Shown here: positions 4,091 through 62,805 of the stretch, piece by piece
Layout of the letters: every line of letters begins with the position of its first letter
Position numbering within the stretch: the first letter of the stretch is position 1
Assembly: GCA_034435155.1 (NCBI GenBank)
Contig: DAOTYG010000324.1
Span: forward strand, 13,622-77,621
DNA: 64,000 nucleotides
Source of the DNA: Anaerolineae bacterium
GTDB taxonomy: Bacteria > Chloroflexota > JAHJIN01
Direction of reading: 5' to 3'
The notes under the pieces: generated by a model
The model's input: the letters and a program-made list of their open reading frames with translations, nothing else
Databases searched by the model: none
Told to the model about the DNA's origin: nothing
Made by a program: the position numbers and the translations under genes

Positions 4091-4144
4091 GTGTCCTCCT
4101 CAAAATCAGCTCCAACGGCTATCGTTCTGATCACCGACACACAT

Positions 4145-4173
4145 ATTTTACCTCGAAACGGCCAATTTTACAA
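4145..4173 (-). promoter_or_regulatory. Putative sigma-70 promoter (TTGTAA-17-TAAAAT on minus strand) for cpaB-cpaE-cpaF operon
   Basis: Reverse complement of 4145-4173 reads TTGTAAAATTGGCCGTTTCGAGGTAAAAT; ~50 nt upstream of cpaB start. Confidence 0.5.
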
Positions 4174-4369
4174 TAGTACCATAGTCCGATTTGCAGGAGG
4201 TAGAGGGTAACTACAGCCAGGTTGCTCAAAGGCGGTCTGTGACCGCAGTCGTGGACAGAAGCATGGCTGTACGAAACGGAAATCGGAGCACAGGCTGGTA
4301 GTTACGGTAGAGGGGGCATAATAAGAGGGGGTTGCAGCAGCATACTACCGTTACAACCCCCTAAATAAT

Positions 4370-4449
4370 GGACTTTGGACAATCCTGGAGTCGAGCCTTC
4401 AGGCGGGCCATATCTTGACCGGCTAAAGCCTCTACTCCTTGTGGTGTGC
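4370..4449. repeat. MITE-like structured repeat, family GGACTTTGGACAA (truncated copy lacking right TIR)
   Basis: Shares ~85% identity with 4494-4587, 22302-22406 and 36435-36526 elements. Confidence 0.8.
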
Positions 4450-4493
4450 GAATCGTTGTTCAAGGTCCAAGCCGTTACAATCCCCTTAATTAC

Positions 4494-4587
4494 TGGACTT
4501 TGGACAATTCTGGAATCGAGCCTTCAGGTGGGCCATATCTTGACCGGTTCAAGCCTCTTCCTCCTTGTGGCGTGGTTGTCCAAAGTT
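4494..4587. repeat. MITE-like element (~95 bp) with terminal inverted repeats GGACTTTGGACAA / TTGTCCAAAGT and internal AGTAGAGGCTTTAGCCGG hairpin
   Basis: TIRs and internal palindrome read directly. Confidence 0.85.
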
Positions 4588-4653
4588 ATAACCACACCCT
4601 AATATCTGGGGTACTTCAGGGGGGCAACTTTCCATCTACTGGTGCTGGTTTAC

Positions 4654-8568: not shown

Positions 8569-8574
8569 TGGCCT

Positions 8575-9035
8575 TCCTCCTCGTATATTTGCTCGCGCGG
8601 GGTCTGCCCCTTTTGCTCGCGCGGGGTCTGCGACCCCGCGCCCGGCGGCTTCTGTGCTCGCGCGGGGTCTGCGACCCCGCGCCCGGCGGCGGGTGACACA
8701 CCCGCCGCGAGCTGTGCTCGCGCGGGGTCTGCGACCCCGCGCCCGGCGGCTTCTGTGCTCACGCGGGGTCTGCGACCCAAGTGCTCACGCGGGGTCTGCG
8801 ACCCCGCGCCCGGCGGCTTCTGTGCTCACGCGGGGTCTGCGACCCCGCGCCCGGCGGCATCTTGTGCTCACGCGGGGTCTGCGACCCCGCGCCCGGCGGC
8901 TTCTGTGCTCACGCGGGGTCTGCGACCCCACACCCAGCGGCGGGTGACACACCCGCCGCGAGCACAGTTGTTCCCGCCGCGAGCACAGTTGTTCCTGTGC
9001 CATGTGGGGTCTGCGACCCCGCGCCCGGTGGCGGG
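8575..9035. repeat. Tandem array (~9 copies, ~41-bp period) of hairpin repeat TGCTC[GA]CGCGGGGTCTGCGACCCCGCGCCCGGCGGC (10-bp perfect stem GCGCGGGGTC/GACCCCGCGC)
   Basis: Directly visible periodic repeats between the surface-protein start and the TadG-PQQ stop; inter-repeat segments are short (6-25 nt) and recurrent, not unique. Confidence 0.9.
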
Positions 9036-9263
9036 TGACACTCCCTACCGTCGCCGCTGCGAGCACAGTTGTTTGAACCGGCGCGAGAGCAGTTGGCGCG
9101 GCGTCCCCATATAAAGTCGTCGGCGCTGGAACCCAGGCCGACGACTCGCTATGCCTTCTTGGAACCCGAAAACCGGCGCGCTCCACCCTGCCGCAGGTTT
9201 TTGAACCTGGGGCAGGATTAAAACAAGGTGCGACGCACGCTCGTGCGTCGCACCTGGATGCGG

Positions 9264-15785: not shown

Positions 15786-15832
15786 CACGTGTTGCGTGTT
15801 ACGTGTTCCGTGTTTCGTGTTGCGTGTTACGT
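15786..15832. repeat. Heptanucleotide repeat (GTGTTNC)x6
   Basis: Immediately upstream of the Mo-oxidoreductase start codon (minus strand). Confidence 0.9.
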
Positions 15833-15972
15833 GGCCGGGGTGATTATAGCACCGGTGTTGTAGGGTTGTCAAACCGGCCTTGACCCCGACGCAGAAATGT
15901 GGCATGATCGGGTGGGAGAACACGGATGCCGGGAAAACAGCGGATGAGCGGGGACCGGTTGGGAGCTGAACC

Positions 15973-25444: not shown

Positions 25445-25477
25445 GTAAAACGTCAAACGAAAAACGTAAAACGTCAG
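25445..25477. promoter_or_regulatory. 11-bp direct repeat GTAAAACGTCA x2 (22-bp spacing) upstream of ECF sigma gene
   Basis: Copies at 25445-25455 and 25467-25477 on the plus strand, ~40-70 nt upstream of the minus-strand sigma start. Confidence 0.5.
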
Positions 25478-27197: not shown

Positions 27198-27210
27198 GGC
27201 TCCCCCAATC

Positions 27211-27362
27211 GAATGGACGAATGGACGAATGGATGAATAGACGAATGGACGAATAGACGAATGGACGAATAGACGAATGGACGAATGGACGAATGGATGA
27301 ATAGACGAATGGACGAATAGACGAATGGACGAATAGACGAATGGACGAATAGACGAATGGAC
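27211..27362. repeat. Octanucleotide microsatellite (GAATRGAC)x19 followed by an inverted GCATTCGTCCATTC hairpin
   Basis: Perfect 8-bp periodicity; the ORF track's DUF47 N-terminal extension (HSSIRPFVYSSIRLFV x n) is its translation. Confidence 0.95.
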
Positions 27363-27408
27363 GAGCAGCTCAACAGTCGCGCATTCGTCCATTCATAGAT
27401 TCGTAAAT

Positions 27409-35310: not shown

Positions 35311-35450
35311 GGTCCTCCTGAGGTGAGGTGACGGTCACCTCCCAGGTGACCTCAATAGTTTACCACAAAACGACGATTCATGCAAAAGGAGGCCGATTTC
35401 AGCGGCGTACGCTCTGACGGTGAGGTGACGGTCACCTCCCAGGTGACCGT
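35311..35450. promoter_or_regulatory. Two copies of a palindromic site GAGGTGACGGTCACCTC(CCAGGTGACC) spaced ~107 bp in a divergent intergenic region
   Basis: Near-perfect 17-bp palindromes at 35317-35333 and 35424-35440. Confidence 0.6.
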
Positions 35451-35493: not shown

Positions 35494-35522
35494 TTGTCAC
35501 CGAAGAGGATGTGTAGTATAAT
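35494..35522 (+). promoter_or_regulatory. Consensus sigma-70 promoter TTGTCA-17-TATAAT for gene 35553..36389
   Basis: -35 at 35494-35499, -10 at 35517-35522, 17-nt spacer, ~30 nt upstream of the RBS. Confidence 0.65.
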
Positions 35523-35552: not shown

Positions 35553-36389
35553 ATGATCGGGCACGAGACGGATGACCTGACCCAACGCGGCGTGGCCGCC
35601 GCCCAGGATGGCGAGCGAGCCGAGGCGTATCAGCTTCTCTCCCAGGCCGTCCAGGCCAACCCCGGCGATGCCCGGGCCTGGCTGTGGCTGTTCGCGGTGG
35701 CGGACACGGACGAGGAGCGGCGCGCGTGTCTGGAGCGGGTGCTGGAGATCGAGCCGGAGAACGCCGGCGCCCGGCGCGAGCTGGAGCGGCTCCAGACGGC
35801 CGGGCCGTCACCACTTGCCGTAGCCCCGTCCCTCCCCACCGGCCACGCCGACAGGCGGAAGATCGTCGGCCCCCTGGTGATCGGGGCCGGGTTGGTCGTG
35901 GCAGTCGTGGCCGTGTTGGGGGTGGCCGGGGCCTGCATGGTATATGTGCTTGGTAGAACTGGGGTCAGACCGCCCGGCATCGTGTCCCGGCCTGTGGCTT
36001 CCCGGCCCTATCCCACGCCGACGCCCGTCGTGCCCTACGTGGCGTTGCTGTCGGCGCGAGGCCACAGCTCAGCGTCCGATGGTTGCGTCGTGGAGGGGGA
36101 GGTTAGTAACCTCACCGGGTCGCCCCTGGAGCTAGACGTTGTCGCCTGCTTCTGTGCGGCCAAAGAGGATACCCGCACCTTTGATGGCGAATCCCGGCTT
36201 GACCGCGTTCCCTTGCCGCCGGGGCAGGTCTCCCGGTTCCGGGTGGTGATACCCTACAACCCGCAGTTGAGGTACGCCCAGGTGCGCTTCAAGTTGACGA
36301 GTGGACAGGGCCTTTATGCCCGGGATGATACCCAGCAAGGCGGCCCGGTGGATTGGTGGGTGCCCCAGGCGTTCATCAAGCTGGAATGA
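35553..36389 (+). CDS. Hypothetical single-pass membrane protein with N-terminal TPR-like helical region
   Basis: ATG with GGAGGAAA RBS and a perfect upstream sigma-70 promoter; TM helix IVGPLVIGAGLVVAVVAVLGVAGA. Confidence 0.6.
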   Translation: MIGHETDDLTQRGVAAAQDGERAEAYQLLSQAVQANPGDARAWLWLFAVADTDEERRACLERVLEIEPENAGARRELERLQTAGPSPLAVAPSLPTGHADRRKIVGPLVIGAGLVVAVVAVLGVAGACMVYVLGRTGVRPPGIVSRPVASRPYPTPTPVVPYVALLSARGHSSASDGCVVEGEVSNLTGSPLELDVVACFCAAKEDTRTFDGESRLDRVPLPPGQVSRFRVVIPYNPQLRYAQVRFKLTSGQGLYARDDTQQGGPVDWWVPQAFIKLE

Positions 36390-36434
36390 TACGCTGCGCC
36401 GGGTCAAGCACCTGAACGCTTGGTGTGAATTATT

Positions 36435-36526
36435 GGACTTTGGACCACACCACAAGGAGGAGTAGAGGCTTTAGCCGGTCGTGCCCACAAGACCTGCAGG
36501 CTCGACTCCAGAATTGTCCAAAGTCC
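36435..36526. repeat. MITE-like element, GGACTTTGGACAA family
   Basis: GGACTTTGGACC ... TTGTCCAAAGTCC termini; located 60 nt upstream of the giant membrane protein gene. Confidence 0.85.
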
Positions 36527-36584
36527 AGTATAGTAGGTTTGAAAGCCCTCGCCCCCAGGTGAGGAAAGCGGAGAGGAGCGGCCT

Positions 36585-39500
36585 ATGCGCTGTCCCCAGT
36601 GCGGTCACGAGAACCTGCACCCCCCGGCCCCCTGCCCGGACTGCGGTTTCACCGGCGACGCAGCCCAATTGGAGGAGCTGGCCCACATCGCCTACCTGCT
36701 GGCCGAATCGGACACGTGGGGGGACCTGCCGCCGGATGCGGTCAGGCGACTGCGCGACCGGTATACGCAGCAGCGCAACGAGCTGGAGGTGGCATTGGGC
36801 CTGCGCCAGCGGCCCCTCACGCCAGACGAGGTCCGCCCGGCCTGGCAGGAGGTCCGCTACCTGGAAGTGCTGCTGGCCCGGCTGCCCTCTTGGACACAGA
36901 AGGGGTGGGTGCGCCCGGAGGTCGCAGACACGCTCATCGCCGGGGCGCAGAAACGCCGCCAGGAACTACAAGCCCGCCTGACCGCAACGCCTCGCGCCCT
37001 GGCGTTGGAGCCGGCCCCCGACGCCGTGGCCCAGCTCCGCTACCTGCGCCGGGCGTTGAAGGACCTGTACGACCGGGGCGATCTGGCCGACGAGGCCGCC
37101 TACGCCGCCGCCGTCGCGGAGTTAGACGCCGAGATCGAGGCAGTGGAAGTGAAGCTGGGCCGGCGACCTGGCCCGGCCCCCAAACCGGCCGCCGTGGAAG
37201 CCGCCCGGCCGGCTCCTGCCCCTGCCCCCCGCAGGCCCCGCCAGCCGATCACCGGGGAGCGCGTCCTGCAAGCCATCCTCTCGGAACGCACTTTGCGGGC
37301 CATGCTGTTCCTGGGCGTGTTCCTGCTCTTCGCCGCCGGGCTGATCCTGGTGGTCTTTAACTGGGACCGTTTCCCGCCACTGGCGCAGTTGCTCTTCCTG
37401 GCCGCCTTCACCTTCTCCTTCTTCGCCCTGGGCTGGTACGTGCGCATGAAGATGCGCCTGCGCAACTCTGGCCTGGCCCTCACGGCCATCGGCGCGCTGC
37501 TCATCCCGCTGGACTTTTATGCGATCTACCTGAGCGGGCATCTGGAATCCTACGTTACGCCGGCGCAGTTCTGGCTCATCGCCTCGGCCTTCTGCCTGCT
37601 GGTCTACACGGCCACGACCTACGCGGTGGAGGCCGAGTTCTTCGGCTACCTGGTGGCGGCGGCGGCCGGAAGCCTGCTCTGCGCGGCGATGCGGGTGGCC
37701 GGTCTCTCGCCAGACTGGTATCCCGGCGCGCTGGGTCTGCTGGCCCTGCTCGTCGCGCCCCTGGCCCAATGGACGAAGAGCGCGGGCCGCTGGCGGGTGT
37801 TCCACCTTCCCCTGTGGTATTCCGCGCTCCTGGCGGTGACAGCTATCTTGCCGGTGGGCCTGGGCCTGTACGCGGTGGGGCTGGCCGGGGGTGACGAGTT
37901 CCGGGCCTCGCTGGCCCTGGCTTGGTGGCTGGGCGGCGCGGTCTACACCCTGGGCGCGCGGCGATTCCGCTCGCGGACGCTGGGTGTGGGCGCAGCCCTC
38001 GCGCTGCCGGCCGCTGTCTACCTGACCCAGTCGCCTCTCTTTGACCGCTGGCAGGTGCCGCTGGCCTGGCACGCCCTGGGCTGGGCGCTCCTGGCCTCGC
38101 TCTACCTGGTCGCCGGCCGGAGGCTGCAATCCCGCAACAGCCGCCACGCGCGCACTCTCCTCGTGGCAAGCCCAACGTTGGCGATGGTATCCGCCCCCTG
38201 GTCGTTTATCAGCTTCACCCGCGCCCTGGACGCGGCGACGGCGACCTATGCCGTGTTGACCCTGGCGGCGATCCTGGCGGCGGCGTTGTGGCAGCGGCCA
38301 CGCGCGCTCCTGGTCGCCAGCTTCTGCGCGCTGGTCTCACTGACGGCCGGCATGTGGGCGCGCGACCTGGCCTTCGCCCACCTCAGCCTGGGCTGGGCGC
38401 TGCTGGCCGTGGCGCATCTGGCGTTGGCGGTGGGTCTCCAGAAGCGGCCGGCCTACGCCGCGCCGGTCTACCTGGCCGGGTTCATCGTCGCCGCGCTGGC
38501 CCTGGTCCCGCCGCTGGTGACGCTGAACCGGGCCGTGCTGATCTACGCCCTGGGCAACTGGATCGCCCTGGCCGGCTGGACGGCCTGGCTGGTCGGGACC
38601 GGTCGGCACGCCGGCCTCAACGCGATCCTGCGGGGCCGCACAGTCAGCCTGCCGCACTGGGCCGCCGCCCTGCCCATCCCGGCCTGGCTCTGGCTGGTCT
38701 GGATGCACAACTGGCCCTACCGGCGGTTCGATCCGGCCTGGCTGGGGATAGGATTCGCGCTGTTGGCGTGGGGTTTGGTTTTCCTGGGTCGCAGGTTGCA
38801 AAGCAAATCGGCAAATGGGCAAATTTGCAAATTCGTTGATTTGCCGATTTGCTGGCCGTGGTACGTGGTTGGCTACATCACCAGCGCGCTGGCGCCCCTC
38901 GCCGGGCTGTGGTATTTCAATGGCGAACGGCTGCTGGTGGCCTCGGTCTTGGCGCTTATCTCCGCGCTCTACTTTGTCTCGGCGTGGATGTTCCGACGGC
39001 GGGTGTGGCTGGCGCCGGCCGGGCTGACGCTGCCGGTGGCCTGGCTGTTTGTCCTGTCCGAACGCGGGATGCCGGTCGCCGTCACCGGCGCGCTGCTGGC
39101 CCTCGCGCCGACGGCCTACCTGCTGGCCGGGTTGCTGCTGGTGCGCGTCCGGCGCGTGGAAAGGGATTTTCTGCTGCCGCTGAACTGCGTGGCCCACGGA
39201 CTGGCCGCGCTGGCCCTGCTGTGGAGCCTGGCCCCGCTGGGGATCAGCCTGCTCCAGCACGGCGAATGGGCCGATACCGACCGCCTCTGGGCTGCCGGGT
39301 GTCAACTGCTCCTGGCGGCGGTCTATGGGCTGGTGGCCTGGGACTTGCGCCGCGAGCGGTGGGGTCACGTGGCGGCCTGGTTGAGCGTGGCGGCCGGCGG
39401 GATCGTCGCCACAGCCTTCAGCGAGGGGCATGGCTCGTCGGCGGCCAAGGCGGCTCTGCTGGCCGTGGCCTACGTGCTGGCGGAGCGTGTGCTGTATGCC

Positions 39501-42326
39501 CTGCGCAATCGGTGGACGCATGGTTCTGCGGCCTGGCCCCTATATCGCCGGCCGCTGCTGGTGGCCGGGTGGGCCGTGTCGGGTGGAGCCATCGGGCTGG
39601 CCCTGTTCCGCAACCTGGTGTTGCTGGGGGCCGGGCGCGAGCAGCAAATCTGGGCCGTTGTCGGGTTGGGGATCATCGTGGGGTTATACGCGCTGGCGGC
39701 CCGGCTGTTCCGCCGCGCCGTCTTCGCCTGGCTGGCGGCCGCGCTCGTGGCGGCCCCGTGGACGATCCTAACCCACCTGGGGTGGTTCGTCTGGCCGGCG
39801 GAGCCGCGCCTGCCGACCTACGCGCTGGCCTGGCTCATCCTGGCCTACCTCTTGCTGGCCGTGGGACTGTGGCTGGAATGGCGCGGCGCGCGCGCCTGCG
39901 GCTTTGCGCCCCGTGTGGTGGCCCACGTCCTCGTCCCGTTCAGCCTCCTCTGGTGCGTGGCCGACGTCCCTATCGCCTACGTCGCCTGGGGGCTGGGCGT
40001 GGCCTTCTATGTGGCCTCGGCCGTGGCGGACCATCTGCGGATGCCCGGCCGGCCGCTGGCCTCGCGCTTTATCTACCCGGCGGCGATGTTGACCCCGGCC
40101 TGGGCGGTCTACCTGCTGGCCCAGTTCGCGCCGACGGCGACGCACCTGAACTACGGCTGGCTGCTGCTGGCCTGTGGGCCGACGGGCCTGGCGGTCGGGA
40201 TTCTCTTGCGCCGCGCGCCTGCTGGCGGGCAGGCCGATGCGCTGCCCCCCTACCTGGCGGCCTATGGCAGCGCGCTGGTGGGGACCATGCTGGTGGCCCA
40301 CGACCGGCCCTGGCTCATCGCCGCGCTCCTGTTCGACGCCGGGCTGTGCGTCTTCTCCGCCTGGCTGCACCGGAAGCCGCTGTGGGGCTACCCGGCGGCG
40401 GCCTTCCCGGTCGGCGCGCTGTGGCTGGCGCTGGCCCACTTCAATATAGCCCCCAATCGCCACGGCTGGGCGCTCATCGCCCTGGGCGCGGCCTACCTGG
40501 TGCTGGCCCACACGCTGCGCTCGTTTGAGTTGCGCCACTACGCCGCGCCGTTGATCGCCGTGGCCTACGTGGCCGTGTCCCTGGGACTGCCGCCCTCCAG
40601 TCGTGACCTGGACGGCGCGCTCGTGGGGTATGCGTTTGCCGCAACGATCTACGCACTCTCGGCGGCCTGGCTGCGGCAGCCGCTGTTGCTGACGCCGGCC
40701 CTGGCGCTCTCGGCGGTCCCCTACGCCGTGGTGTTGTATCGCCTGCCCATCCCGACCGCCGACTATGGCCTGTGGCTCTGGCCGGGCATCGCCGTGGCCC
40801 TGGTCATCGCCCACGTGCTGGATTCCAGCCTGGGTGCGCCGCGCGATTTTCCCTGGTCGCAGCCGGCCCGCTGGCTGCCCACCCTCGCCGAACGCTGGCT
40901 GACCTGGCCGGGCTTGCCGTTCTACGTGGCCGCCTTCCTGGGGGCTATCGTCTCCGTGGGGCTGTCGTGGCGGTGGGGCACGGCCCTGCACGTGTCCGCG
41001 ACCCTGGGGTTGACGGCAGCGGCCTGTGGCCTGGCGGCGTATCGCTTCCGCCTGCGCGTCTGGTTGTTGGCGGCCGGGGCGTCGGCCCAACTGGCCGCGC
41101 TCATGCTGATCTACTACCTCACAGGTGTGTGGCGGCCGGCCGACTATGCGCTGGCCTTCCTGCCGGTCACGGTCGCCACCGCACTCCTGGCGTTGGTCAT
41201 CGAGCGACGGTTGGGCGAGGTATCGCCGCTGGCCGGTTGGCTGAGTCCCCTGGTCGGCTGGTCGCGCCCGCTCTATGCCCTGCTGGTGGTGGACTTGCTC
41301 GTGGGCCAGGTGGCGGCCCTGGGCGATGGCGGGCCGGGCGGCGCGGTCTCGCTGGGCCACGCCCTGCTGCTGGCGGTGTTCGCCTCGGCCTGGGCATTGC
41401 CGGCCCTGGCCTACGCGGCGGCCGGCTGGACGTTGCTGCCGCTGCTCCAGTGGCTGGACCGCTATCAGGTCTCCCAGACCGACCGGCCGGTCTGGCTGGC
41501 GTTCCTGGCCGTCGGCGGGATCGCTGGCTATGGGCTGACCTTCGCGCGCCGGGAGCGAGAAGCCCTGCCCATCTGGCTTGGCGTCTGGGAGAAGCCGCTG
41601 AGCCGGGTTGGGCTGGCCTTCGCGTCGTTGGCGTTGCTCTGGGCCGTGCTGGTTGGCGGATGGGATGTGCTTGGGCTGACGATCCGCGCCCTGTTCGAGC
41701 AGCCGGTGGCGTCGGCCCAGTCGCCGGCCGTGGGGATGACCATCGCCGTGCTGGCCCTGGCCGGGCTGGTCTACCTGGCGGCGGCGCTGGTGGAGCGGTG
41801 GGAGTGGCTGGGTTACGGCGCGGTGGCGCTGCTGTTGGCCGCCTATGGCCTGTGGGCGTTGCTGTTCCTGGGCCAGCGTGAGGCGCAGTGGTACGCGGTG
41901 CCGGCCGGCGTCTACCTGCTGGGCGTGGGCTACGGGGAGTGGCGGGTCGGGCGGCGGGCGTTGGCCCGCTGGGTGGACTGGACCGCGCTGGTCGTGCTGT
42001 TCGGCTCCGTCTTCCTGCAATCGCTGTTCCCGGATCGCTGGCTGTATACGCTGCTGATGGTGGGCGAGGGGCTGGCGGTGCTCGTGTGGGGCAGCGCGCG
42101 GCGGCTGCGGCGGTTCCTGTATGCCGGCGTCGCCGGGGTGGTGCTGGCCGTCGTCGGGCAGATGCTCAGCCAGACCTTGCGGTCGGTCAGCGGGTTGGGC
42201 ACCGCGCTGGTGCTGGGCGTCGTGGGCCTGGCGATCCTGTTGTTCGCGCTCCTGGTGGAGTGGCGGCTGGAGGCGGTGAAGCGGCTGTCGAGGGAACTGC
42301 GGGAGCGGCTGGAGGGGTGGGAGTGA
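36585..42326 (+). CDS. Giant (1913 aa) polytopic integral membrane protein with N-terminal zinc ribbon and ~200-aa cytoplasmic helical region followed by ~45 predicted TM helices
   Basis: ATG with GGAGAGGAG RBS; CPQCGH...CPDCGF zinc ribbon; uninterrupted hydrophobic helix periodicity to the C-terminus; alternative-frame ORFs in this interval are Arg/Pro/Gly-rich GC artefacts. Confidence 0.75.
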   Translation: MRCPQCGHENLHPPAPCPDCGFTGDAAQLEELAHIAYLLAESDTWGDLPPDAVRRLRDRYTQQRNELEVALGLRQRPLTPDEVRPAWQEVRYLEVLLARLPSWTQKGWVRPEVADTLIAGAQKRRQELQARLTATPRALALEPAPDAVAQLRYLRRALKDLYDRGDLADEAAYAAAVAELDAEIEAVEVKLGRRPGPAPKPAAVEAARPAPAPAPRRPRQPITGERVLQAILSERTLRAMLFLGVFLLFAAGLILVVFNWDRFPPLAQLLFLAAFTFSFFALGWYVRMKMRLRNSGLALTAIGALLIPLDFYAIYLSGHLESYVTPAQFWLIASAFCLLVYTATTYAVEAEFFGYLVAAAAGSLLCAAMRVAGLSPDWYPGALGLLALLVAPLAQWTKSAGRWRVFHLPLWYSALLAVTAILPVGLGLYAVGLAGGDEFRASLALAWWLGGAVYTLGARRFRSRTLGVGAALALPAAVYLTQSPLFDRWQVPLAWHALGWALLASLYLVAGRRLQSRNSRHARTLLVASPTLAMVSAPWSFISFTRALDAATATYAVLTLAAILAAALWQRPRALLVASFCALVSLTAGMWARDLAFAHLSLGWALLAVAHLALAVGLQKRPAYAAPVYLAGFIVAALALVPPLVTLNRAVLIYALGNWIALAGWTAWLVGTGRHAGLNAILRGRTVSLPHWAAALPIPAWLWLVWMHNWPYRRFDPAWLGIGFALLAWGLVFLGRRLQSKSANGQICKFVDLPICWPWYVVGYITSALAPLAGLWYFNGERLLVASVLALISALYFVSAWMFRRRVWLAPAGLTLPVAWLFVLSERGMPVAVTGALLALAPTAYLLAGLLLVRVRRVERDFLLPLNCVAHGLAALALLWSLAPLGISLLQHGEWADTDRLWAAGCQLLLAAVYGLVAWDLRRERWGHVAAWLSVAAGGIVATAFSEGHGSSAAKAALLAVAYVLAERVLYALRNRWTHGSAAWPLYRRPLLVAGWAVSGGAIGLALFRNLVLLGAGREQQIWAVVGLGIIVGLYALAARLFRRAVFAWLAAALVAAPWTILTHLGWFVWPAEPRLPTYALAWLILAYLLLAVGLWLEWRGARACGFAPRVVAHVLVPFSLLWCVADVPIAYVAWGLGVAFYVASAVADHLRMPGRPLASRFIYPAAMLTPAWAVYLLAQFAPTATHLNYGWLLLACGPTGLAVGILLRRAPAGGQADALPPYLAAYGSALVGTMLVAHDRPWLIAALLFDAGLCVFSAWLHRKPLWGYPAAAFPVGALWLALAHFNIAPNRHGWALIALGAAYLVLAHTLRSFELRHYAAPLIAVAYVAVSLGLPPSSRDLDGALVGYAFAATIYALSAAWLRQPLLLTPALALSAVPYAVVLYRLPIPTADYGLWLWPGIAVALVIAHVLDSSLGAPRDFPWSQPARWLPTLAERWLTWPGLPFYVAAFLGAIVSVGLSWRWGTALHVSATLGLTAAACGLAAYRFRLRVWLLAAGASAQLAALMLIYYLTGVWRPADYALAFLPVTVATALLALVIERRLGEVSPLAGWLSPLVGWSRPLYALLVVDLLVGQVAALGDGGPGGAVSLGHALLLAVFASAWALPALAYAAAGWTLLPLLQWLDRYQVSQTDRPVWLAFLAVGGIAGYGLTFARREREALPIWLGVWEKPLSRVGLAFASLALLWAVLVGGWDVLGLTIRALFEQPVASAQSPAVGMTIAVLALAGLVYLAAALVERWEWLGYGAVALLLAAYGLWALLFLGQREAQWYAVPAGVYLLGVGYGEWRVGRRALARWVDWTALVVLFGSVFLQSLFPDRWLYTLLMVGEGLAVLVWGSARRLRRFLYAGVAGVVLAVVGQMLSQTLRSVSGLGTALVLGVVGLAILLFALLVEWRLEAVKRLSRELRERLEGWE
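38803..38852. repeat. Palindromic heptamer-family tract GCAAATCGGCAAAT...ATTTGCCGATTTGC inside the giant membrane protein CDS (in frame)
   Basis: AT-richer 50-nt palindrome embedded in a 70% GC CDS; same GATTTGC/GCAAATC heptamer family as the intergenic tracts. Confidence 0.85.
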
Positions 42327-42329
42327 GCG

Positions 42330-42411
42330 GATTGGCAAATGGCAGATTGCAAATGGCAAATTGCAGATTGCAGATTGCAAATTGCAGATTGCAGATTGCA
42401 GATTGCAAATT
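42330..42411. repeat. Heptanucleotide tandem repeat (GATTGCA/AATGGCA)x11
   Basis: 7-bp periodicity between giant membrane gene stop and four-helix-bundle start. Confidence 0.95.
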
Positions 42412-42426
42412 ATGGAAGGAGGGGCT

Positions 42427-42828
42427 ATGACGTATGAGGAGTGGGAGCGGCAGGTGGCGGGGGAGATCAAGGCGGATGCGTTGTGGCAGATGGATGTGTA
42501 TCGGCTGGCGTTGTATCTCTACGACCTGGCCTGGGATGATTGCGAGACGCTAATGAGGGATGCGCGGGGCAGGGCGATAGTGGAGCAACTTATCCGCAGC
42601 GCTGGATCGGTGGCGGCCAACATAGAGGAAGGGTTTGGCCGGGGTTTTGGCAAGGGATACGCCTACTTTCTGCGCATCTCTCTCGGCTCGGCCCGCGAGA
42701 CCCGGGGCTGGTACTATCGAAGCCGCCGTTTGTTGCCCCCGGCCGTGATCAAGCATCGCCTGGACCTGCTGAGCCAGATCGTCGCGATCCTCGTCACGGC
42801 CGCGCACCAACAGAGACAGCGCAAGTAG
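42427..42828 (+). CDS. Four-helix-bundle protein (TIGR02436 / 23S rRNA intervening-sequence protein family, Avd-like)
   Basis: Motifs SVAANIEEGFGRG, YFLRISLGSARETRGWYY typical of PF05635; start at ATG 42427 with GGAAGGAGGGG RBS, since the ORF-track N-terminus is repeat-derived. Confidence 0.75.
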   Translation: MTYEEWERQVAGEIKADALWQMDVYRLALYLYDLAWDDCETLMRDARGRAIVEQLIRSAGSVAANIEEGFGRGFGKGYAYFLRISLGSARETRGWYYRSRRLLPPAVIKHRLDLLSQIVAILVTAAHQQRQRK

Positions 42829-42920
42829 CAGATTGCGGATTGCAGATTGCAGATTGCAGATTGCGGATTGCAGATTGCAATTCGCAATTTGCAATTTGCA
42901 ATTCGCAATTCGCAATTTGC
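42828..42920. repeat. Heptanucleotide repeats (GCAGATT)x7 then (GCAATTY)x6 forming a long imperfect palindrome
   Basis: 7-bp periodicity; second half is a near reverse complement of the first half. Confidence 0.95.
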
Positions 42921-42936
42921 CAGGAGCTAGAATCCC

Positions 42937-44202
42937 ATGAACAAGTATCTGAAGTGGCTCGTGACCCTGAGTGGCCTGGCCCTGATGCTGCTGGGCGTGC
43001 CGATGCTGCTGGGGGTCTGCGTGCTGATGCTGGCGTTGGCCGGAGGCGCGGGCGAGCTTGACGCGCTGTCTTTCAGCCTGAGCATGGCCCTTTTCCTGAC
43101 CATGACCTTCGGCTGCGGCGGGGTGGCCTTTTACCACGGGATGTGCGCGCTGATCGGCCGGCCCTCCGGGTCGCTGCGGTTGCCGCCGGCCTGGGCGCTG
43201 GGCGGGAGTTTCGTCCTGGCGCTGGTCGCGGGCCTGCTGATGCACGAGGCCGTGTGCGTTGCGCCGCTGATATTTCCACTGCTCTTCCTCCTGGCGGTGG
43301 CGTTGCCGCCGGTGACGGGGGTGGCAGTGATGGTGGACCGGCACCCCGGCGCGCTCACCTGGCGCCGGGCGCTGGTGGCCTTCTGCGCCGGGGCCACGGT
43401 CTCGACGAGCCTGGCGATCGTGTTGAACACCCTGCTGCCGGGCCTGCTGCTCGCCCTGGTGTGGGGCCTGGCCGACCAGGTGTTGCCGGCCCTGGAGAAG
43501 CTGCTGGACGCGCTGGCCGGGGGCCGGGTGGCCGACGCGCTGACCTCGCGGGGCTTCCTGTTCGCGCTGGTGGAGCTGGCGATCATCGCGCCGTTTGGGG
43601 AGGAGTTCTTGAAGCCGATGGTGGTGTTGCCGCTGCTCAAGCGGCTGGGGCGGCGCGATGCGTTGCTCTTGGGGGCCTGCGCCGGGGCCGGGTTCGCGGC
43701 CCTGGAGGATGCGCTGTACGCCGGCTTCGGGTTGCCGGTCTGGGCCGGCATCCTGTTGCTGCGGGCGATGGGCGCGCCCCTGCACTCGCTGGGGGCCGGG
43801 CTGACGACGATGGGCTGGTGGGAGGTGTTCCAGCGCCGGCCAGACGCCGGCCGGCATTGGCTGGAACGCTACGGGCTGGCCGTGGGCATCCATGCCCTGT
43901 GGAACGGCGGCTCGTGGCTGGTGATCGCGCTGATCCTGGCCGGTTTCTTCGGGCCGGTGCCGGAGATAAGTCTCCTGGGCTTGCCGGAGGTGGGCCTTCT
44001 GCTGGCGCTGCTGGCCGTGGAGGGCGCGGCCATCTGGATCGGGGCGCGGGCGCTGTCCCGACGACTCCTCCCGGCCGGGGAAGCCCGGCCCGCGCACGAG
44101 GGAATGCCTGTCGAGCGGGCACTGGCGATCTGGGCCGTCGTCTGCCTGGCCGTGCTGGTGCCGGTGGGTTTGACGATCTTGCGGTCGTGGTGGATTCTGT
44201 AG
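42937..44202 (+). CDS. PrsW-like intramembrane metalloprotease family membrane protein
   Basis: Multi-TM protein with PrsW signature order: GEEFLKP (EExxK), AALEDALY (FxxxE), HALWNG (HxxxN). Confidence 0.65.
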   Translation: MNKYLKWLVTLSGLALMLLGVPMLLGVCVLMLALAGGAGELDALSFSLSMALFLTMTFGCGGVAFYHGMCALIGRPSGSLRLPPAWALGGSFVLALVAGLLMHEAVCVAPLIFPLLFLLAVALPPVTGVAVMVDRHPGALTWRRALVAFCAGATVSTSLAIVLNTLLPGLLLALVWGLADQVLPALEKLLDALAGGRVADALTSRGFLFALVELAIIAPFGEEFLKPMVVLPLLKRLGRRDALLLGACAGAGFAALEDALYAGFGLPVWAGILLLRAMGAPLHSLGAGLTTMGWWEVFQRRPDAGRHWLERYGLAVGIHALWNGGSWLVIALILAGFFGPVPEISLLGLPEVGLLLALLAVEGAAIWIGARALSRRLLPAGEARPAHEGMPVERALAIWAVVCLAVLVPVGLTILRSWWIL

Positions 44203-44231
44203 ACCGCTGACGGCCGACGAAGGAGTGCCCT

Positions 44232-44795
44232 ATGCAACGCCTCTCACATCTATTGAACAAGCCCAACCTGTGGATCGTGATCCTGCTGCTGGCGGCGAAC
44301 GGCGCGGCGTGGATATTTGCATTGACTCCCCAGATGACGCGCGTGGTGGAGCCGCGCCTGGAGCCGGACCTGGCCGACCTGCGCCAGAAGCTCATCGAGG
44401 GCGGTCACTCCGGCGAGCGGTTCACCATCGTCATCACCAACCAGGAGGCGGAGGAGACCATCGCCTGGTATCTGCAAGGCCACCCCAACGTCCCCTTTGC
44501 CAATCCCCGCGTGCAGATTCATCCGGGCTACGTGGAGGCGTGGGGCGAGGCGCGGCTGGCCGGGCTGCGCATTGACCTGCACGGCCGGGCGCGCGTTGAG
44601 CTGCGGGATGAGAAGCCGGTCGTCATCGTCGAGGAGCTGGGCCTGGCCGGGCTCGTGGTGCCGGACGCCGTCCGACAGCGCATCCAGCAGGAGCTGGACG
44701 CCCAGTTCGACCTGAGCGACCAGCAGTTGCCGGTGATCCTCAGCCGTTTTGAGTTGCAAGAGGGCCAGGCGGTCATCGAGGGGACGATCCGCTAG
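44232..44795 (+). CDS. Hypothetical membrane-anchored protein
   Basis: ATG with AAGGAG RBS, single N-terminal TM helix, no recognisable domain. Confidence 0.55.
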   Translation: MQRLSHLLNKPNLWIVILLLAANGAAWIFALTPQMTRVVEPRLEPDLADLRQKLIEGGHSGERFTIVITNQEAEETIAWYLQGHPNVPFANPRVQIHPGYVEAWGEARLAGLRIDLHGRARVELRDEKPVVIVEELGLAGLVVPDAVRQRIQQELDAQFDLSDQQLPVILSRFELQEGQAVIEGTIR

Positions 44796-46472: not shown

Positions 46473-46555
46473 TCGGAATGCGGAATGCGGATTTCGGAAT
46501 GCGGAATGCGGAATGGGGGGCCATACGCCGCATTCCGCATTCTATATTCTACATT
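46473..46555. repeat. (CGGAATG)x6 heptamer tract plus inverted GCATTCCGCATTC arm forming a hairpin
   Basis: Between AGPS-like gene stop and glpD start. Confidence 0.9.
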
Positions 46556-46561
46556 CCTAAT

Positions 46562-48259
46562 TCATAAATCCAGGGCCAATATGCCGCCGGGGTTCATGAT
46601 GTTGTGCGGGTCGAAGTGCCGCTTGAGGGCGCGGAACACCTCAAGCTGGTTCGTGCCGATCTGACCCTCCAGCCAGGGGGCGGTGCTCCGGCCGATGCCG
46701 TGATGGTGGCTCATGGTGGCCCCGGTCGCCTGGATCGCGTCCAGGATGCTGGCCTGGTAGGCCAGGTACTCGTCCAGGCCCTCCATGCGGGCGATGAAGA
46801 TGAAGTACAGGTTCGCGCCCTGGGGGTAAAAGTGCGAGGCGTGGGTCATGCAGATGGTGCGGGGCCGGGCGTGGCAGACCTGGCGCACGCCGGCCCAGAC
46901 CCGGTGCAAATTCGCCCAGCTCACGCCACATTCCAGCGTATCCAATATGATCCCGAAATCGCCCAGGTCTTCGCGCATGTACGGGTCACGGAAGCGGCCG
47001 TGTTCCCAGCGTTTGGTCACATAGCCGGTGGTGTAGAGCGCGCCGTACCGTTTGCAGATGGCCTTGATCTTGCGTTTCACCAGCCGTCCATAGTCCGCGT
47101 CGCCGTCGGTGTGGCCCAGGAGCAGGCAGCGCTCCATCGGCCGGTAGCCCAGCCGGGTGAGGAGCGTGTCCGCCAGGGGCACGTCCTCCACGCCGTAGAG
47201 CTTGAAGGCCACGTCAGTCTCCTCCGGGTCCGACAGCCGGAACACCGACGGGAAGCCGAACTCCCCCTGCATGACCTCACGGCACGCCTCCACTGCTGAC
47301 TCCCAGTCTCGAAAGACAAAGCTGAACCGCTGGCGGGCCTCCGGCCGGTAGCGATATACCTTGAGCGTGACCTCTACCAGCACGCCGAAGGTCCCCTCAG
47401 AGCCGAGCATGATTTGATCGATATCCGGCCCCGTGGCCTTGGCCGGCACGTCCACCGTCACGATGTCGCCCACCGGGGTGACGTATTTCTGGGACAGGAT
47501 CAGGTGCTCGATCTTGCCGTAGTAGGTGGAGTTCTGCCCGGCTCCCCGCGTGACCACCCAGCCCCCCACCGACGAATACTCGAACGACTGGGGAAAGTGG
47601 CCGCAGGTGTAGCGGTGCGGCGCGCCGAAGCGTTCCGGGGCCTGGTTCAACGCCTCCTCCAGGGCCGGGCCATAGATGCCCGGCTCCACGGTCACGGTCT
47701 GGTTCACCGGATCCAGGCGCAGGATGCGGCGCATGTGGGTGCTCATCTTCAACGAGATGCCGCCGCGCACGCACTCTGCGCCCCGGGTTACGCCGGAGCC
47801 GGCCCCAAAAGGCACGATGGGGATGCGCCGCTCGTCGCAAAAGCGCACCAGTTGGCGCACGTCGTCGGCATGGCGGGGATGGACCACGGCATCTGGCGGG
47901 TTCTCGATGACCCCGGCCCGCAGACGCAGCACGTCCACCATCGTCTTGCCGTAGCAGACGGCCGCGCGCGACCCATCGTCCGTGGATACGTTCTCCGGCC
48001 CCACGATGGCGGCCAGCCCGGCCAGCGTCTCCGCCGACAGGCGGCACGGTTGCTCTACACGCACCGGCGTCTCACCGGTGTTCGTGCGAACCCGGAAGTC
48101 GTCATCGGTCATGCCGAAGACCTGCTTCATGTGCTCGTACAGCCGCCGGTTGGGGTGCTTGAACTCCGTGGGGCTGCCCCATTTGAGGAGCGCGCGGTAT
48201 GAGCCAGGTGGCGGAGGGGATTCGGTCCAGGGGGGAGTGAAACGGTCTCGTTTGGGCAT
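46562..48259 (-). CDS. FAD-linked oxidase, alkyldihydroxyacetonephosphate synthase-like (start at internal ATG 48257-48259)
   Basis: FAD-binding PCMH-type domain (PIVPFGAGSGVTRGA) and AGPS-like C-terminal part (HHHGIGRS); N-terminal 45 aa also exist as a duplicated fragment at 49354..49476. Confidence 0.85.
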   Translation of the reverse strand: MPKRDRFTPPWTESPPPPGSYRALLKWGSPTEFKHPNRRLYEHMKQVFGMTDDDFRVRTNTGETPVRVEQPCRLSAETLAGLAAIVGPENVSTDDGSRAAVCYGKTMVDVLRLRAGVIENPPDAVVHPRHADDVRQLVRFCDERRIPIVPFGAGSGVTRGAECVRGGISLKMSTHMRRILRLDPVNQTVTVEPGIYGPALEEALNQAPERFGAPHRYTCGHFPQSFEYSSVGGWVVTRGAGQNSTYYGKIEHLILSQKYVTPVGDIVTVDVPAKATGPDIDQIMLGSEGTFGVLVEVTLKVYRYRPEARQRFSFVFRDWESAVEACREVMQGEFGFPSVFRLSDPEETDVAFKLYGVEDVPLADTLLTRLGYRPMERCLLLGHTDGDADYGRLVKRKIKAICKRYGALYTTGYVTKRWEHGRFRDPYMREDLGDFGIILDTLECGVSWANLHRVWAGVRQVCHARPRTICMTHASHFYPQGANLYFIFIARMEGLDEYLAYQASILDAIQATGATMSHHHGIGRSTAPWLEGQIGTNQLEVFRALKRHFDPHNIMNPGGILALDL

Positions 48260-48289
48260 GTTGTTCTCTCTCGTAAATAGCGCTCCGGC

Positions 48290-48714: not shown

Positions 48715-49338
48715 TTATTTGGTGGCCTCATAGTGATAGACCCATAAGTGCCTGCCCAGACCCCGCAGGTAATCTGTACCTCCATTCTCGCGCGTTACCA
48801 TTGCCCCGGCCAGCATGTCCGCCACCTGCAAGCCATCCCAACGGCGCGCTGGCTCCCCGCGTACCTTGGGAGTCTGCTTCAACCCACGGGCTAACAGCAC
48901 CGGGGAAGTGACCACCCGCAGGTTGCGTATCAACGGACTGTTTTTCACCTCACTGTCTACAAGAATTCGTTTGACTGTCAGCAAATCCAGGGGAGCGCGA
49001 GCCAGCAATTGCGCCAGGAAGAGACCGTAAAAAGACGGGGTGTGCATCCTGGCAAACTCCACGGATAAGCGGCGTTTGTCCACCATCAGCAAAGCCCCCT
49101 CCCAGGCAAAGTGTGGTAGGGTGGCGAAGAACGCGGTTCGCACCACCTGAGAGTTGCGAGCGAAATGGAACTCGAACGCCTGCGGCAACCCCAGTTGTGC
49201 TCTCAGCCGGATGAGTCCTTGTCGCAACCCGGCATAGTCTGTGCTGGATACCAGGCTCAGAACGAGGTGAGACGAAGATCCGAGAGCAAATTTGAAACCA
49301 GTGTCACCTGACCAGTCAACAAAGCCATAGGCTCGCAC
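48715..49338 (-). CDS. DUF3800-like protein (GTG start)
   Basis: N-terminus MRAYGFVDWSGDTG resembles the DUF3800 (YxDESG) start; lower local GC; 15 nt downstream of the AGPS N-terminal fragment. Confidence 0.55.
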   Translation of the reverse strand: MRAYGFVDWSGDTGFKFALGSSSHLVLSLVSSTDYAGLRQGLIRLRAQLGLPQAFEFHFARNSQVVRTAFFATLPHFAWEGALLMVDKRRLSVEFARMHTPSFYGLFLAQLLARAPLDLLTVKRILVDSEVKNSPLIRNLRVVTSPVLLARGLKQTPKVRGEPARRWDGLQVADMLAGAMVTRENGGTDYLRGLGRHLWVYHYEATK

Positions 49339-49353
49339 TTGCTTCCCTCACTC

Positions 49354-49476
49354 CTACAGCCGGCGGTTGGGGTGCTTGAACTCCGTGGGGCTGCCCCATT
49401 TGAGGAGCGCGCGGTACGAGCCAGGTGGCGGGGGAGACTCGGTCCAGGGAGGGGTGAAACGGTCTTTTTCGGCCAT
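49354..49476 (-). pseudogene. Remnant of a second AGPS-like oxidase: 40-codon N-terminal fragment ending in TAG
   Basis: Translates to MAEKDRFTPPWTESPPPPGSYRALLKWGSPTEFKHPNRRL*, ~90% identical to residues 1-40 of the intact gene at 48259. Confidence 0.65.
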
Positions 49477-49621
49477 GCCTTCGTTCGCTCCATCAAGGCT
49501 ATCCATGTACGGCACGTATTATATCCGATCCTGCCCGGCCTTGCCAGAGTACCCGGCCCGATGTATACTCTGGTTGCTCGTAGCTGACCAGTTTCCAGCA
49601 ACTAGCTTCCAGTTGGAGGTG

Positions 49622-50458: not shown

Positions 50459-50510
50459 TCTCGGGGCGGTCGGCGGTCGTTGGTTGGCGGTCGTTAGTCG
50501 GCGGTCGGGT

Positions 50511-51101
50511 TTATGTCGCCAGGCGTTCGCCGCATTGGGGGCACTGAGCCGTGCCGGCCGCCAGCAGTCGGCCACACGAGGGGCACCGCACCGGCTGCAC
50601 ATCGCCCAGGGGCGCGCCGCAGGCCACGCAACGCCCCTCACCGATCTGGTTGCCGGTGCGACAATACGGGCAGGTGACCATGGTCGGCTCCGGCGGCAAG
50701 GCCGGGCGCGTGCCCACGGTCTTGACGTATTGCTCCACTGCGGTCCAGATCTGTTGGGGCAGGTTCAGGTCCTGCACATTGCGTGCCACGTCGTCCACCC
50801 GGTGAACCAGGGACCAGGGGTTGATGAGCGCGCCCAGGCCGGTCTGCACCAGATCGGCGGCCACCTCCAACCACTGGGGTTCGCCCATGTCCACCTTCAC
50901 CCCCTCCTCAGTGGGTGCGATGGTCACGGTAATGGCGGTATCCGGCTCCCCTCGGATCCGCCTGTTGGTGCTGATCTGCACCACCGCTTGCGTCCCGCGT
51001 CCGACCTTGTGCGCCCGGTAATCGCCGCGATTGAACTGCGTCACCAGGGCTTCGGCCAGGTCCCCCGGCGTGATGTTCCCCCGAAACTTGCGTTCGGCCA
51101 T
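50511..51101 (-). CDS. Hypothetical protein with C-terminal double zinc-ribbon
   Basis: CPYC...C.AC and CPSCG...CPQCG motifs at the C-terminus; MITE-like element in its upstream region. Confidence 0.6.
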   Translation of the reverse strand: MAERKFRGNITPGDLAEALVTQFNRGDYRAHKVGRGTQAVVQISTNRRIRGEPDTAITVTIAPTEEGVKVDMGEPQWLEVAADLVQTGLGALINPWSLVHRVDDVARNVQDLNLPQQIWTAVEQYVKTVGTRPALPPEPTMVTCPYCRTGNQIGEGRCVACGAPLGDVQPVRCPSCGRLLAAGTAQCPQCGERLAT

Positions 51102-54465: not shown

Positions 54466-54590
54466 GCAGTGACTGCCTGCCCTCCCGCAGGTTGGGGTAC
54501 AATGGGCCAGACCAGAAGGTATTGCCCCTCTAACCTATTACAAACTCCTTGCAAACCCCCCGCTTTTGGTATAGAATAAGACCGGCTATT

Positions 54591-54766
54591 GCGGAATGGG
54601 GAATGCGGAATGCGGAGTGCGGAATGGGGAATGGAGAATGCGGATTTCGGAATCTGATTACGCAGTCTGCCATTTGCCATTTGCCATGTGCCATTTGCAA
54701 TTTGCAATCTGCAATTTGCAATCTGCAATCTGCAATCCACAATCCGCAATCTGCCATCCGCAATCC
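54591..54766. repeat. Heptanucleotide repeats (GGAATGS)x~9 then (TGCCATT/TGCAATC)x14 upstream of pdxS
   Basis: Two adjacent 7-bp-period tracts. Confidence 0.95.
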
Positions 54767-62465: not shown

Positions 62466-62805
62466 CCCGCAAGTCAAAGATTCCTGCTCGCGCGGGGTCT
62501 GCGACCCCGCGCCGGCGGCTATCTTGTGCTCGCGCAGGGTGTGCCACCCCGCGCTGGTGGGCGGCGGGTCACCCAGTCAGGCCTGGGCCTGGCAGACCCG
62601 CCGCGAGCGAGGGTCTTATGCTCGCGCGGGGTCTGCGACCCCGCGCTGGTGAGTGGCGGGTCACCCAGTCAGGCCTGGGCCTGGCAGACCCGCCGCGAGC
62701 GAGGGGCACACCCTCTTATGCTCGCGCGGGGTCTGCGACCCCGCGCTGGTGAGTGGCGGGTCACCCAGTCAGGCCTGGGCCTGGCAGACCCGCCGCGAGC
62801 AGTGG
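62466..62805. repeat. Tandem array (3.5 copies, ~95-bp composite unit) of the same GCGCGGGGTCTGCGACCCCGCGC hairpin plus a second GGCGGGTCACCCAGTCAGGCCTGGGCCTGGCAGACCCGCC hairpin
   Basis: Near-identical 95-bp units between darA and the CBS gene. Confidence 0.9.

Follow-up and report, generated by a model that had tools for sequence, protein, structure and literature searches.

The stretch of DNA analysed here, 64,000 nucleotides from contig DAOTYG010000324.1 of the Anaerolineae bacterium assembly GCA_034435155.1 (hereafter the window), contains a gene for a polytopic membrane protein of 1913 residues, referred to as the giant protein. Comparison with related genomes indicates that this gene very probably heads a vertically inherited three-gene operon of the Anaerolineae, in which it is followed by genes for a PrsW-family protease and a small TULIP/LmeA-like protein, and that a selfish cassette carrying a PF05635 gene has been inserted into the spacer between giant and prsW. 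The giant protein and the three-gene module are without a characterised counterpart, and are new in the sense of uncharacterised, not of mechanistically demonstrated; PrsW, TULIP and the intervening sequence (IVS)/S23p cassette are of already known kinds. The genes, each an open reading frame (ORF), are the following (TM, transmembrane).

36585-42326, + strand: giant polytopic membrane protein, 1913 residues
42427-42828, + strand: four-helix-bundle protein, 133 residues (PF05635/TIGR02436)
42937-44202, + strand: PrsW-family protease, 421 residues (PF13367)
44232-44795, + strand: small membrane protein, 187 residues (N-terminal TM anchor and TULIP/LmeA-like domain)

An earlier note made from the sequence of this DNA had described these ORFs, a ribosome-binding site, a zinc ribbon, a MITE-like (miniature inverted-repeat transposable element) repeat, heptamer arrays, the PF05635 and PrsW assignments and the small membrane protein, and all of them were found where it had placed them. 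The ribosome-binding site of the giant ORF, GGAGAGGAG, lies 7 nt 5' of the ATG.

Conservation of the giant gene and its operon

One possibility to be considered was that the 5.7-kb ORF is an assembly chimera. Five contigs of independent assemblies, however, encode the identical protein. Of the 137 homologues obtained in a word-indexed search, about 100 are collinear over 1900-2000 residues at 36-81% identity; collinear full-length orthologues occur in more than 70 species. Spurious long ORFs do arise in high-GC DNA, an antisense ORF of 900 residues at 39768-42470 being an example. Against this stand the GC content of the giant ORF at third and second codon positions (GC3 0.90, GC2 0.52), which matches that of adjacent host genes, the positive-inside periodicity of the protein and the mean predicted local distance difference test score (pLDDT) of 81 for its AlphaFold2 (AF2) model. 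The chance that the ORF is a chimera or a non-coding ORF of GC-rich DNA is negligible.

The named sources of the homologues are Chloroflexota, mostly Anaerolineae, with the exception of one contig of a metagenome-assembled genome (MAG) labelled Thioalkalivibrio. A scan of one genome per species located the gene in 79 loci, in MAGs of Anaerolineales, Caldilineaceae, Ardenticatenaceae and Thermoflexales. Deeper clades (24-30% identity, 1472-2550 residues) retain the zinc ribbon and the first and last TM blocks, the first TM block with invariant residues including D310 in the motif 'PxDF'. The wider superfamily, delimited by an exhaustive HMMER search with a profile of residues 1-420, comprises 2,696 representatives at 50% identity (E<=1e-3), 1,166 of which score E<=1e-10, with lengths up to 2,776 residues.

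No family could be assigned to the giant protein, in agreement with the earlier note. The window's protein has no match in Pfam or NCBIfam, its profile returned nothing below E 0.08 among PDB sequences, and a Foldseek comparison of the model with the PDB gave no hit at E<=1e-3, the top matches being soluble TPR/HEAT solenoids with TM-scores below 0.17. The suggestion that homologues might reveal a known transporter or glycosyltransferase family was not borne out, since no transporter, flippase, GT-C or polymerase family was matched in Pfam, NCBIfam, the PDB or Foldseek. When the long distant homologues were compared with Pfam and NCBIfam, zinc-ribbon hints, a sub-threshold match to DUF2157 and one N-terminal TPM domain appeared. 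This last is in superfamily member P0313, where the TPM domain (PF04536, E 1.5e-13) at residues 41-163 replaces the zinc-ribbon region. In the literature on DUF2157/DUF4401, PrsW in Chloroflexi and PF05635/HEPN nothing was found that describes the giant family or the operon.

Downstream gene content was scored in 71 informative species-level Anaerolineae loci, and in 65 of these the giant gene is followed by prsW and/or the gene for the 187-residue protein, as follows.

PrsW and small protein directly downstream: 44/71 loci
PrsW downstream, small gene lost at the contig end: 6/71 loci
PrsW only: 3/71 loci
Small protein only: 12/71 loci
Neither partner: 6/71 loci

The small protein is thus found beside the giant in 56 loci versus 53 for PrsW, and it is the partner that is kept where PrsW is absent. 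The operon spacers in most loci measure from -12 nt to a few tens of nt, and such short or overlapping spacers suggest that the genes are co-translated. The loci inspected first had prsW and a gene for a protein of ~185 residues only a few bases 3' of the giant gene; in an Ardenticatenaceae MAG the small protein alone is present there. A giant homologue at only 24-27% identity also has a downstream prsW gene, with one gene in between, and many orthologues of the window's PrsW agree with the giant homologues in longest-contig size. The clustering of the genes, for which the earlier note had no explanation, therefore stands for PrsW and the small protein, but not for the PF05635 gene, which is absent from nearly all orthologous loci.

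Clustering of the flanking ORFs from 84 loci yielded no further recurrent partner; what remains is lineage-specific synteny only, such as an ABC-2 transporter and ParA/ParB-like genes in one subclade. The transporter, a Wzm/Wzt-like pair of permease and ATPase, is encoded divergently upstream of the giant gene (~5.7-7.6 kb) in about eight loci labelled Caldilineaceae or Anaerolineales (L015, L023, L040, L053, L059, L070, L071 and L074), with the ParA/ParB-like synteny downstream. The pair hints at envelope polymer export, but is lineage-restricted.

Architecture of the giant protein and its partners

The giant protein is made up of the following parts, the extents of which derive from the source given in brackets.

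36591..36647, + strand: zinc ribbon CPxC...CPxCG, residues 3-21 (alignments)
36660..37253, + strand: predicted cytoplasmic six-helix domain, residues 26-190, and, C-terminal to it, a disordered Pro-rich linker, residues 199-223 (AF2 model)
37284..42254, + strand: array of 57-62 TM helices with short loops, residues 234-1890 (AF2, hydropathy)
37707..41819, + strand: about 13 tandem repeats with a unit of 100-127 residues and ~4 TM helices, residues 375-1745 (hhalign of profile slices)

The N-terminus reads MRCPQCG...CPDCG. Its cysteines C3, C6, C17 and C20 are invariant in alignments of 17-21 sequences, clades at 24-30% identity included, and are at least 90% conserved in an alignment of 37 sequences. 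The AF2 model, which covers residues 1-1190 and was computed from 21 input sequences, has a mean pLDDT of 81.1 and a predicted template-modelling score (pTM) of 0.52, and shows 33 TM helices within residues 234-1181. Calibrated, alignment-averaged hydropathy reproduced 33 peaks in this region and gave 24-28 more in residues 1182-1895. The total is hence 57-62 TM helices, most often 58-59, of which the earlier figure of ~45 was an underestimate. Lysine and arginine alternate regularly between successive loops, with a mean of 2.32 in the rich (cytoplasmic) loops versus 0.71 in the poor ones; both termini are therefore probably cytoplasmic.

The internal repeats were detected with hhalign probabilities of up to 98.7% (E down to 2e-16), the units starting near residues 375, 492, 596, 721, 835, 953, 1080, 1191, 1294, 1395, ~1520 and 1635. 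Highly conserved blocks, notably residues 940-1070 and the C-terminal 200 residues, do not follow the repeat and bear invariant polar residues. Non-repeating invariant polar residues in the protein, among them D310 ('PxDF'), E967/R968, R1009/N1010, D1149, D1413, E1785 and D1798, suggest specific sites; invariant acidic residues such as D310 sit near the outer helix ends. K955 (39447-39449; GSSAAKAALLA), in the most conserved central block, is kept in 90% of the giants with an adjacent PrsW and is mostly Leu in a PrsW-less subclade.

For the packing of the TM region, the model predicts an alpha-solenoid or palisade embedded in the membrane; closure of the palisade to a ring or arc is a conjecture. 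The blade of Piezo consists of nine repeat units of four TM helices, so that it, like the giant, derives a very large TM count from tandem four-helix units. With ~58 TM helices the giant lies well beyond the 38 of Piezo (PMC10969519). It would rank among the largest polytopic proteins known and, as a solenoid inside the bilayer, would represent a new build of membrane protein, conserved class-wide and covered by no profile or solved structure.

The only membrane analogue of the giant is EccD, in which a linker joins a soluble N-domain to 11 TM helices, and whose dimers form a TM wall enclosing a lipid-lined cavity (PMC6986878). EccD differs in its 11 TM helices versus ~58 and in an N-domain that is ubiquitin-like instead of a zinc ribbon; there is no sequence similarity, and the phylum is a different one. 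No genes of a type VII secretion system (EccB/C/E, WXG100) were seen in the loci with annotated neighbours. A further likeness concerns the DUF2157/DUF4401/GDYXXLXY proteins, which have 160-350 residues and are likewise uncharacterised. The first TM block of one giant homologue matches PF09925 below threshold (E 4e-5), and the gene of a distant giant (P0117, 1631 residues; 3368-10896 of locus L088) lies directly 3' of a DUF2157-DUF4401-GDYXXLXY gene trio; the window's giant itself has no match to them. The giant family and the DUF2157 cluster may be linked remotely in evolution.

The 421-residue protein belongs to PF13367, PrsW, with 56.9 bits versus a cut-off of 23.5 (E 2.6e-15). The catalytic motifs of this family (M82), given here partly after PMC3482391, are EExxK/R, FxxxE, H and HxxxN, and the corresponding motifs GEEFLKP, FAALED, PLHSLG and HALWNG are intact in the translation. 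PrsW proteins include site-1 proteases and also processing proteases tied to Zn-ribbon and other signalling domains (PMC3482391).

The 187-residue protein consists of an N-terminal TM anchor and an extracytoplasmic domain with a TULIP/LmeA-like fold, in which a curved beta-sheet wraps around a long helix as in TULIP. This agrees with a weak Pfam match to LmeA (PF11209, E 0.003, 18.1 bits), which stays below the cut-off of 27.3. LmeA itself, a periplasmic protein of TULIP-like type, serves to maintain the polytopic mannosyltransferase MptA during stress (PMC7643837). By analogy, the small outward-facing protein is presumed to bind lipid. It differs from TULIP proteins of the LmeA/YceB/BPI type in being one small domain on a TM anchor with a sub-threshold Pfam score, and in that its partner is not a GT-C enzyme.

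Possible role of the operon

Our preferred, though tentative, reading is that the three proteins serve membrane or envelope homeostasis as a complex under the control of proteolysis by PrsW. Giant, PrsW and small protein would form a single membrane complex concerned with the condition of bilayer or envelope. The palisade of the giant would offer a very long lipid-facing surface, or could enclose a patch of lipid as EccD dimers do, and the TULIP-like partner would bind lipid or pass it on at the outer face. PrsW would act as a dedicated protease that matures, turns over or, depending on stress, cuts the giant or the small partner, as PrsW does RsiW. The zinc-ribbon/helical domain could then be the cytoplasmic output or docking end. 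Conservation, synteny, topology, repeats, folds and the intact protease motifs are what the analysis shows; from these we infer the physical association, the cleavage relationship, the lipid binding and the physiological role.

Several points weigh against this proposal. The global arrangement of the model is uncertain, given a pTM of 0.52 and its extent of residues 1-1190, and the TULIP scores of the small protein are modest. PrsW is absent beside the giant in 18 of the 71 loci (12 with the small protein only, 6 with neither) and is thus not obligatory in cis. Comparison of giants with and without PrsW revealed no deleted segment and few substitutions, such as that of K955. Finally, genes for a regulator, a sigma factor or lipid synthesis do not recur consistently near the operon.

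Two other readings of the same operon have to be considered, both of which we regard as unlikely. The giant might be at once sensor and substrate in signalling by regulated intramembrane proteolysis, with PrsW making the site-1 cut upon envelope stress and thereby freeing the zinc-ribbon/helical domain to act as the signal in the cytoplasm, in analogy to RsiW, PrsW and sigma-W of B. subtilis. There is precedent for such a role of PrsW (PMC3482391, PMC6066255); prsW is adjacent in 53 of the 71 loci and occurs in a distant clade as well, and the predicted cytoplasmic, Zn-binding N-domain is tethered to the first TM helix by a disordered linker. The systems share a PrsW with intact motifs and a candidate partner that is membrane-anchored with a Zn-binding cytoplasmic N-terminus. 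RsiW, however, is an anti-sigma factor that spans the membrane once and has its gene next to sigW, not prsW, whereas the candidate partner here has 58 TM helices and is not linked to a gene for a sigma factor or DNA-binding protein. No sigma/anti-sigma gene was seen among the annotated neighbours, annotation of the recurrent clusters being limited to the larger ones. Moreover, the N-domain lacks an anti-sigma or helix-turn-helix signature, a sensor has no obvious need for ~58 TM helices, and 12 loci are without an adjacent PrsW.

It is similarly doubtful that the operon serves transport or biosynthesis, the TM palisade being a conduit or platform on which an envelope lipid, glycolipid or polymer is exported or assembled, with the TULIP-like protein as acceptor outside and PrsW as mere housekeeping. 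The resemblance of the giant model to EccD with its lipid-lined cavity (PMC6986878), the TULIP-like partner, the invariant acidic residues near outer helix ends (D310) and the Wzm/Wzt-like ABC-2 transporter encoded divergently upstream in ~8 loci are in line with such a function. On the other hand, the giant matches none of the transporter, flippase, GT-C or polymerase families, it has no energy-coupling domain, and the link to the ABC transporter is confined to one lineage. A more far-reaching version of the homeostasis proposal holds that the giant founds a superfamily of membrane alpha-solenoids that curve into an arc or ring around a bilayer patch, where a TULIP-like protein loads or extracts lipid and PrsW controls assembly and turnover, with S23p/IVS cassettes colonising the spacers of mRNA operons besides; we consider this a long shot.

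The partnership with PrsW and a TULIP-like protein suggests a new envelope/membrane-homeostasis module in the Chloroflexota, whose envelope is poorly understood. The far-reaching version, if true, would give filamentous Chloroflexota a system of membrane nanodomains fenced in by protein. Nothing so far ties the operon to a long-standing question.

The PF05635 cassette and other features of the window

The 133-residue protein encoded between giant and prsW belongs to the 'S23p' family (PF05635, E 7e-14; TIGR02436, E 1.6e-16). Its gene is flanked by arrays of heptamers, identified with Tandem Repeats Finder.

42330-42411, + strand: 5' heptamer array (GATTGCA)x11.6 (same arrangement in the related locus L008)
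42828-42917, + strand: 3' heptamer palindrome, (GCAGATT)x7.4 followed by the inverted (GCAATTC)x5.9

The 3' palindrome folds into a hairpin of ~43 bp (-70.2 kcal/mol, z -11.6). The arrays bracket the PF05635 gene only, in a cassette of ~0.6 kb, and GC3 of this gene is 0.74 versus host-like values of 0.88-0.92 in the three operon genes around it. A counterpart of the window's gene between giant and prsW was found only in L008 (73% identity, the giants being 57% identical), and a decayed remnant of 26 residues with three heptamers in L005 (8431-8560). Unrelated PF05635 paralogues occur in L044, in the giant-prsW spacer, and in L007, between prsW and the small gene. The former is flanked by other heptamers (CGAGTGA upstream, AATGACG/CTCGTCA downstream) and the latter by complementary arms at 5318-5340 and 5819-5839. 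In the predicted RNA folds of L008 (13740-14415) and L044 (13835-14322) the ORF is enclosed by pairing of the 5' array with the inverted array at the 3' side; in that of the window the 3' hairpin dominates, with further terminal pairing.

A parallel is offered by the selfish IVS of Coxiella, which carries an S23p (PF05635) ORF, complementary repeats at its ends that RNase III cuts, and tandem heptamers, (GACAGAT)x3, just before the start codon (PMC4990558). With the 23S rRNA IVS of Coxiella and Leptospira the cassette shares the PF05635 ORF, the stem-forming complementary terminal repeats and the heptamers directly before the start codon. It differs in its location, an mRNA operon spacer between protein genes instead of helix 45 or 25 of 23S rRNA, and in its much longer heptamer arrays (6-12 copies). 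By this analogy, we read the cassette as an IVS-like selfish element in an mRNA spacer. It has no functional tie to the operon. PF05635 genes with complementary heptamer arrays in mRNA spacers would extend the IVS concept beyond rRNA and account in a simple way for many PF05635 genes and heptamer arrays that are orphans.

The same spacers contain other inserts, namely an MNT+HEPN pair (L012, 12903-13689), a UPF0175+DUF3368 (PIN-like) pair (L045, 5533-6293), a WD40 gene (L041, 13360-14550) and two unrelated genes (L016, 7128-9253); those of L012 and L045 are toxin-antitoxin pairs. The operon spacers have the look of hot spots in which small genes of selfish or accessory nature insert. All four PF05635 genes in the 1.47 Mb of sampled related loci fall in the operon's two spacers, in three independent events, and none was found elsewhere in this sequence. 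The operon spacers make up ~12% of the sampled spacers, which puts the chance of three out of three at ~0.002, for loci that were chosen around the operon and a small n. That the operon is a preferred landing site for PF05635 insertions is hence a lead, not a finding.

The earlier note had proposed that positions 35553-44795 form an island bounded by heptamer repeats, and had called the 133-residue protein Avd-like, after the accessory protein of diversity-generating retroelements (DGRs). The first of these proposals did not hold, as the arrays flank the PF05635 gene only and neither 35553 nor 44795 carries a boundary mark. Of the second, the membership in PF05635 was upheld, a family that does include the DGR protein Avd (PMC10053308), but not the DGR link. 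A Pfam scan of the operon genes and ten flanking ORFs (~27.4-51.1 kb, about 8 kb on each side) revealed no reverse transcriptase (RVT) domain, and the 64-kb window contains no direct-repeat pair resembling the template and variable repeats of a DGR. The label 'Avd-like' by itself is no indication of a DGR. A mobile island was rejected because the operon occurs in 65 of the 71 loci, its GC3 is host-like, its flanks consist of housekeeping genes, and neither a tRNA in the window nor an integrase among the flanking genes scanned was seen. A functional partnership of the PF05635 gene with the giant was likewise rejected, the copies in window/L008, L044 and L007 being unrelated paralogues in different spacers. 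With the operon conserved without a PF05635 gene in almost all loci, and with such paralogues and toxin-antitoxin pairs in the same spacers elsewhere, it is very improbable that the arrays delimit a mobile island in which the Avd-like protein has the giant, or a DGR located elsewhere, as its partner, even though PF05635 includes Avd and the arrays do flank the gene.

Period-7 arrays are a generic intergenic feature of these genomes. They occur at seven other places in the window. Among 86 related sources, 23 contain such arrays, 68 in total, and the majority of the arrays do not adjoin PF05635 genes. Other intergenic tandem arrays of the window have differing units with a period of 7 or 8 (13568-13624, 15787-15833, 25445-25474, 46474-46545, 50465-50508 and 54590-54765; an 8-mer at 27210-27364). 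The array at 46474-46545 is a heptamer palindrome without an ORF. Just 5' of a PdxS-like gene, at 54662-54765, lies (GCAATCT)x15, which complements the (GATTGCA) array at 42330 exactly. The short tandem arrays of the window resemble the short tandemly repeated repetitive (STRR) sequences of cyanobacteria.

Three features lie upstream of the giant gene.

35494..35522, + strand: sigma-70-like promoter candidate, TTGTCA-17-TATAAT (11/12, a consensus match alone)
35553-36389, + strand: ORF for a tetratricopeptide repeat (TPR)/TM protein, 278 residues (Pfam TPR_19/TPR_14)
36431-36530, no strand assigned: nested palindromic element, MITE-like or resembling repetitive extragenic palindromes (REP-like), with inverted arms at 36431-36445 and 36516-36530

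The 278-residue protein has TPRs at its N-terminus, a single TM helix and then a C-terminal domain. Its gene was considered as a conserved neighbour of the giant gene and rejected, since tblastn detected it in one of more than 80 loci, and there far from the giant gene. The sigma-70-like site 5' of it is the sole strong promoter candidate ahead of the operon. Just 5' of this site a 30-nt palindromic repeat, GGTGAGGTGACGGTCACCTCCCAGGTGACC, is present in two identical copies 97 nt apart (35322-35351 and 35419-35448). The MITE-like element ends ~55 bp 5' of the giant ORF. Further copies lie at 4357-4433, 4482-4558 and ~22302, and its core motif occurs eight times versus 0.9 expected.

The housekeeping genes that flank the operon in the window encode GlpD-like, FAD oxidase, ThiF, Ser/Thr kinase, PiT, DsbH-like and methyltransferase proteins, and the window contains no tRNA, rRNA or any other Rfam match. 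A 196-residue protein encoded ~6 kb from the operon (50511-51101, - strand) ends in a double zinc ribbon at the C-terminal side (PF12773/PF13240). A GC-rich palindromic REP-like unit, CGCGGGGTCTGCGACCCCGCG..., is arrayed at two distant intergenic sites (8610-9045 and 62485-62800) with periods of 41, 67, 83 and 100 nt. Two direct repeats were also found: one of 300 nt and 91% identity between adjacent paralogous genes at the start of the window (1-300 versus 1396-1695), and one of 141 nt and 87% identity with copies 1.2 kb apart (48120-48260 versus 49337-49477).

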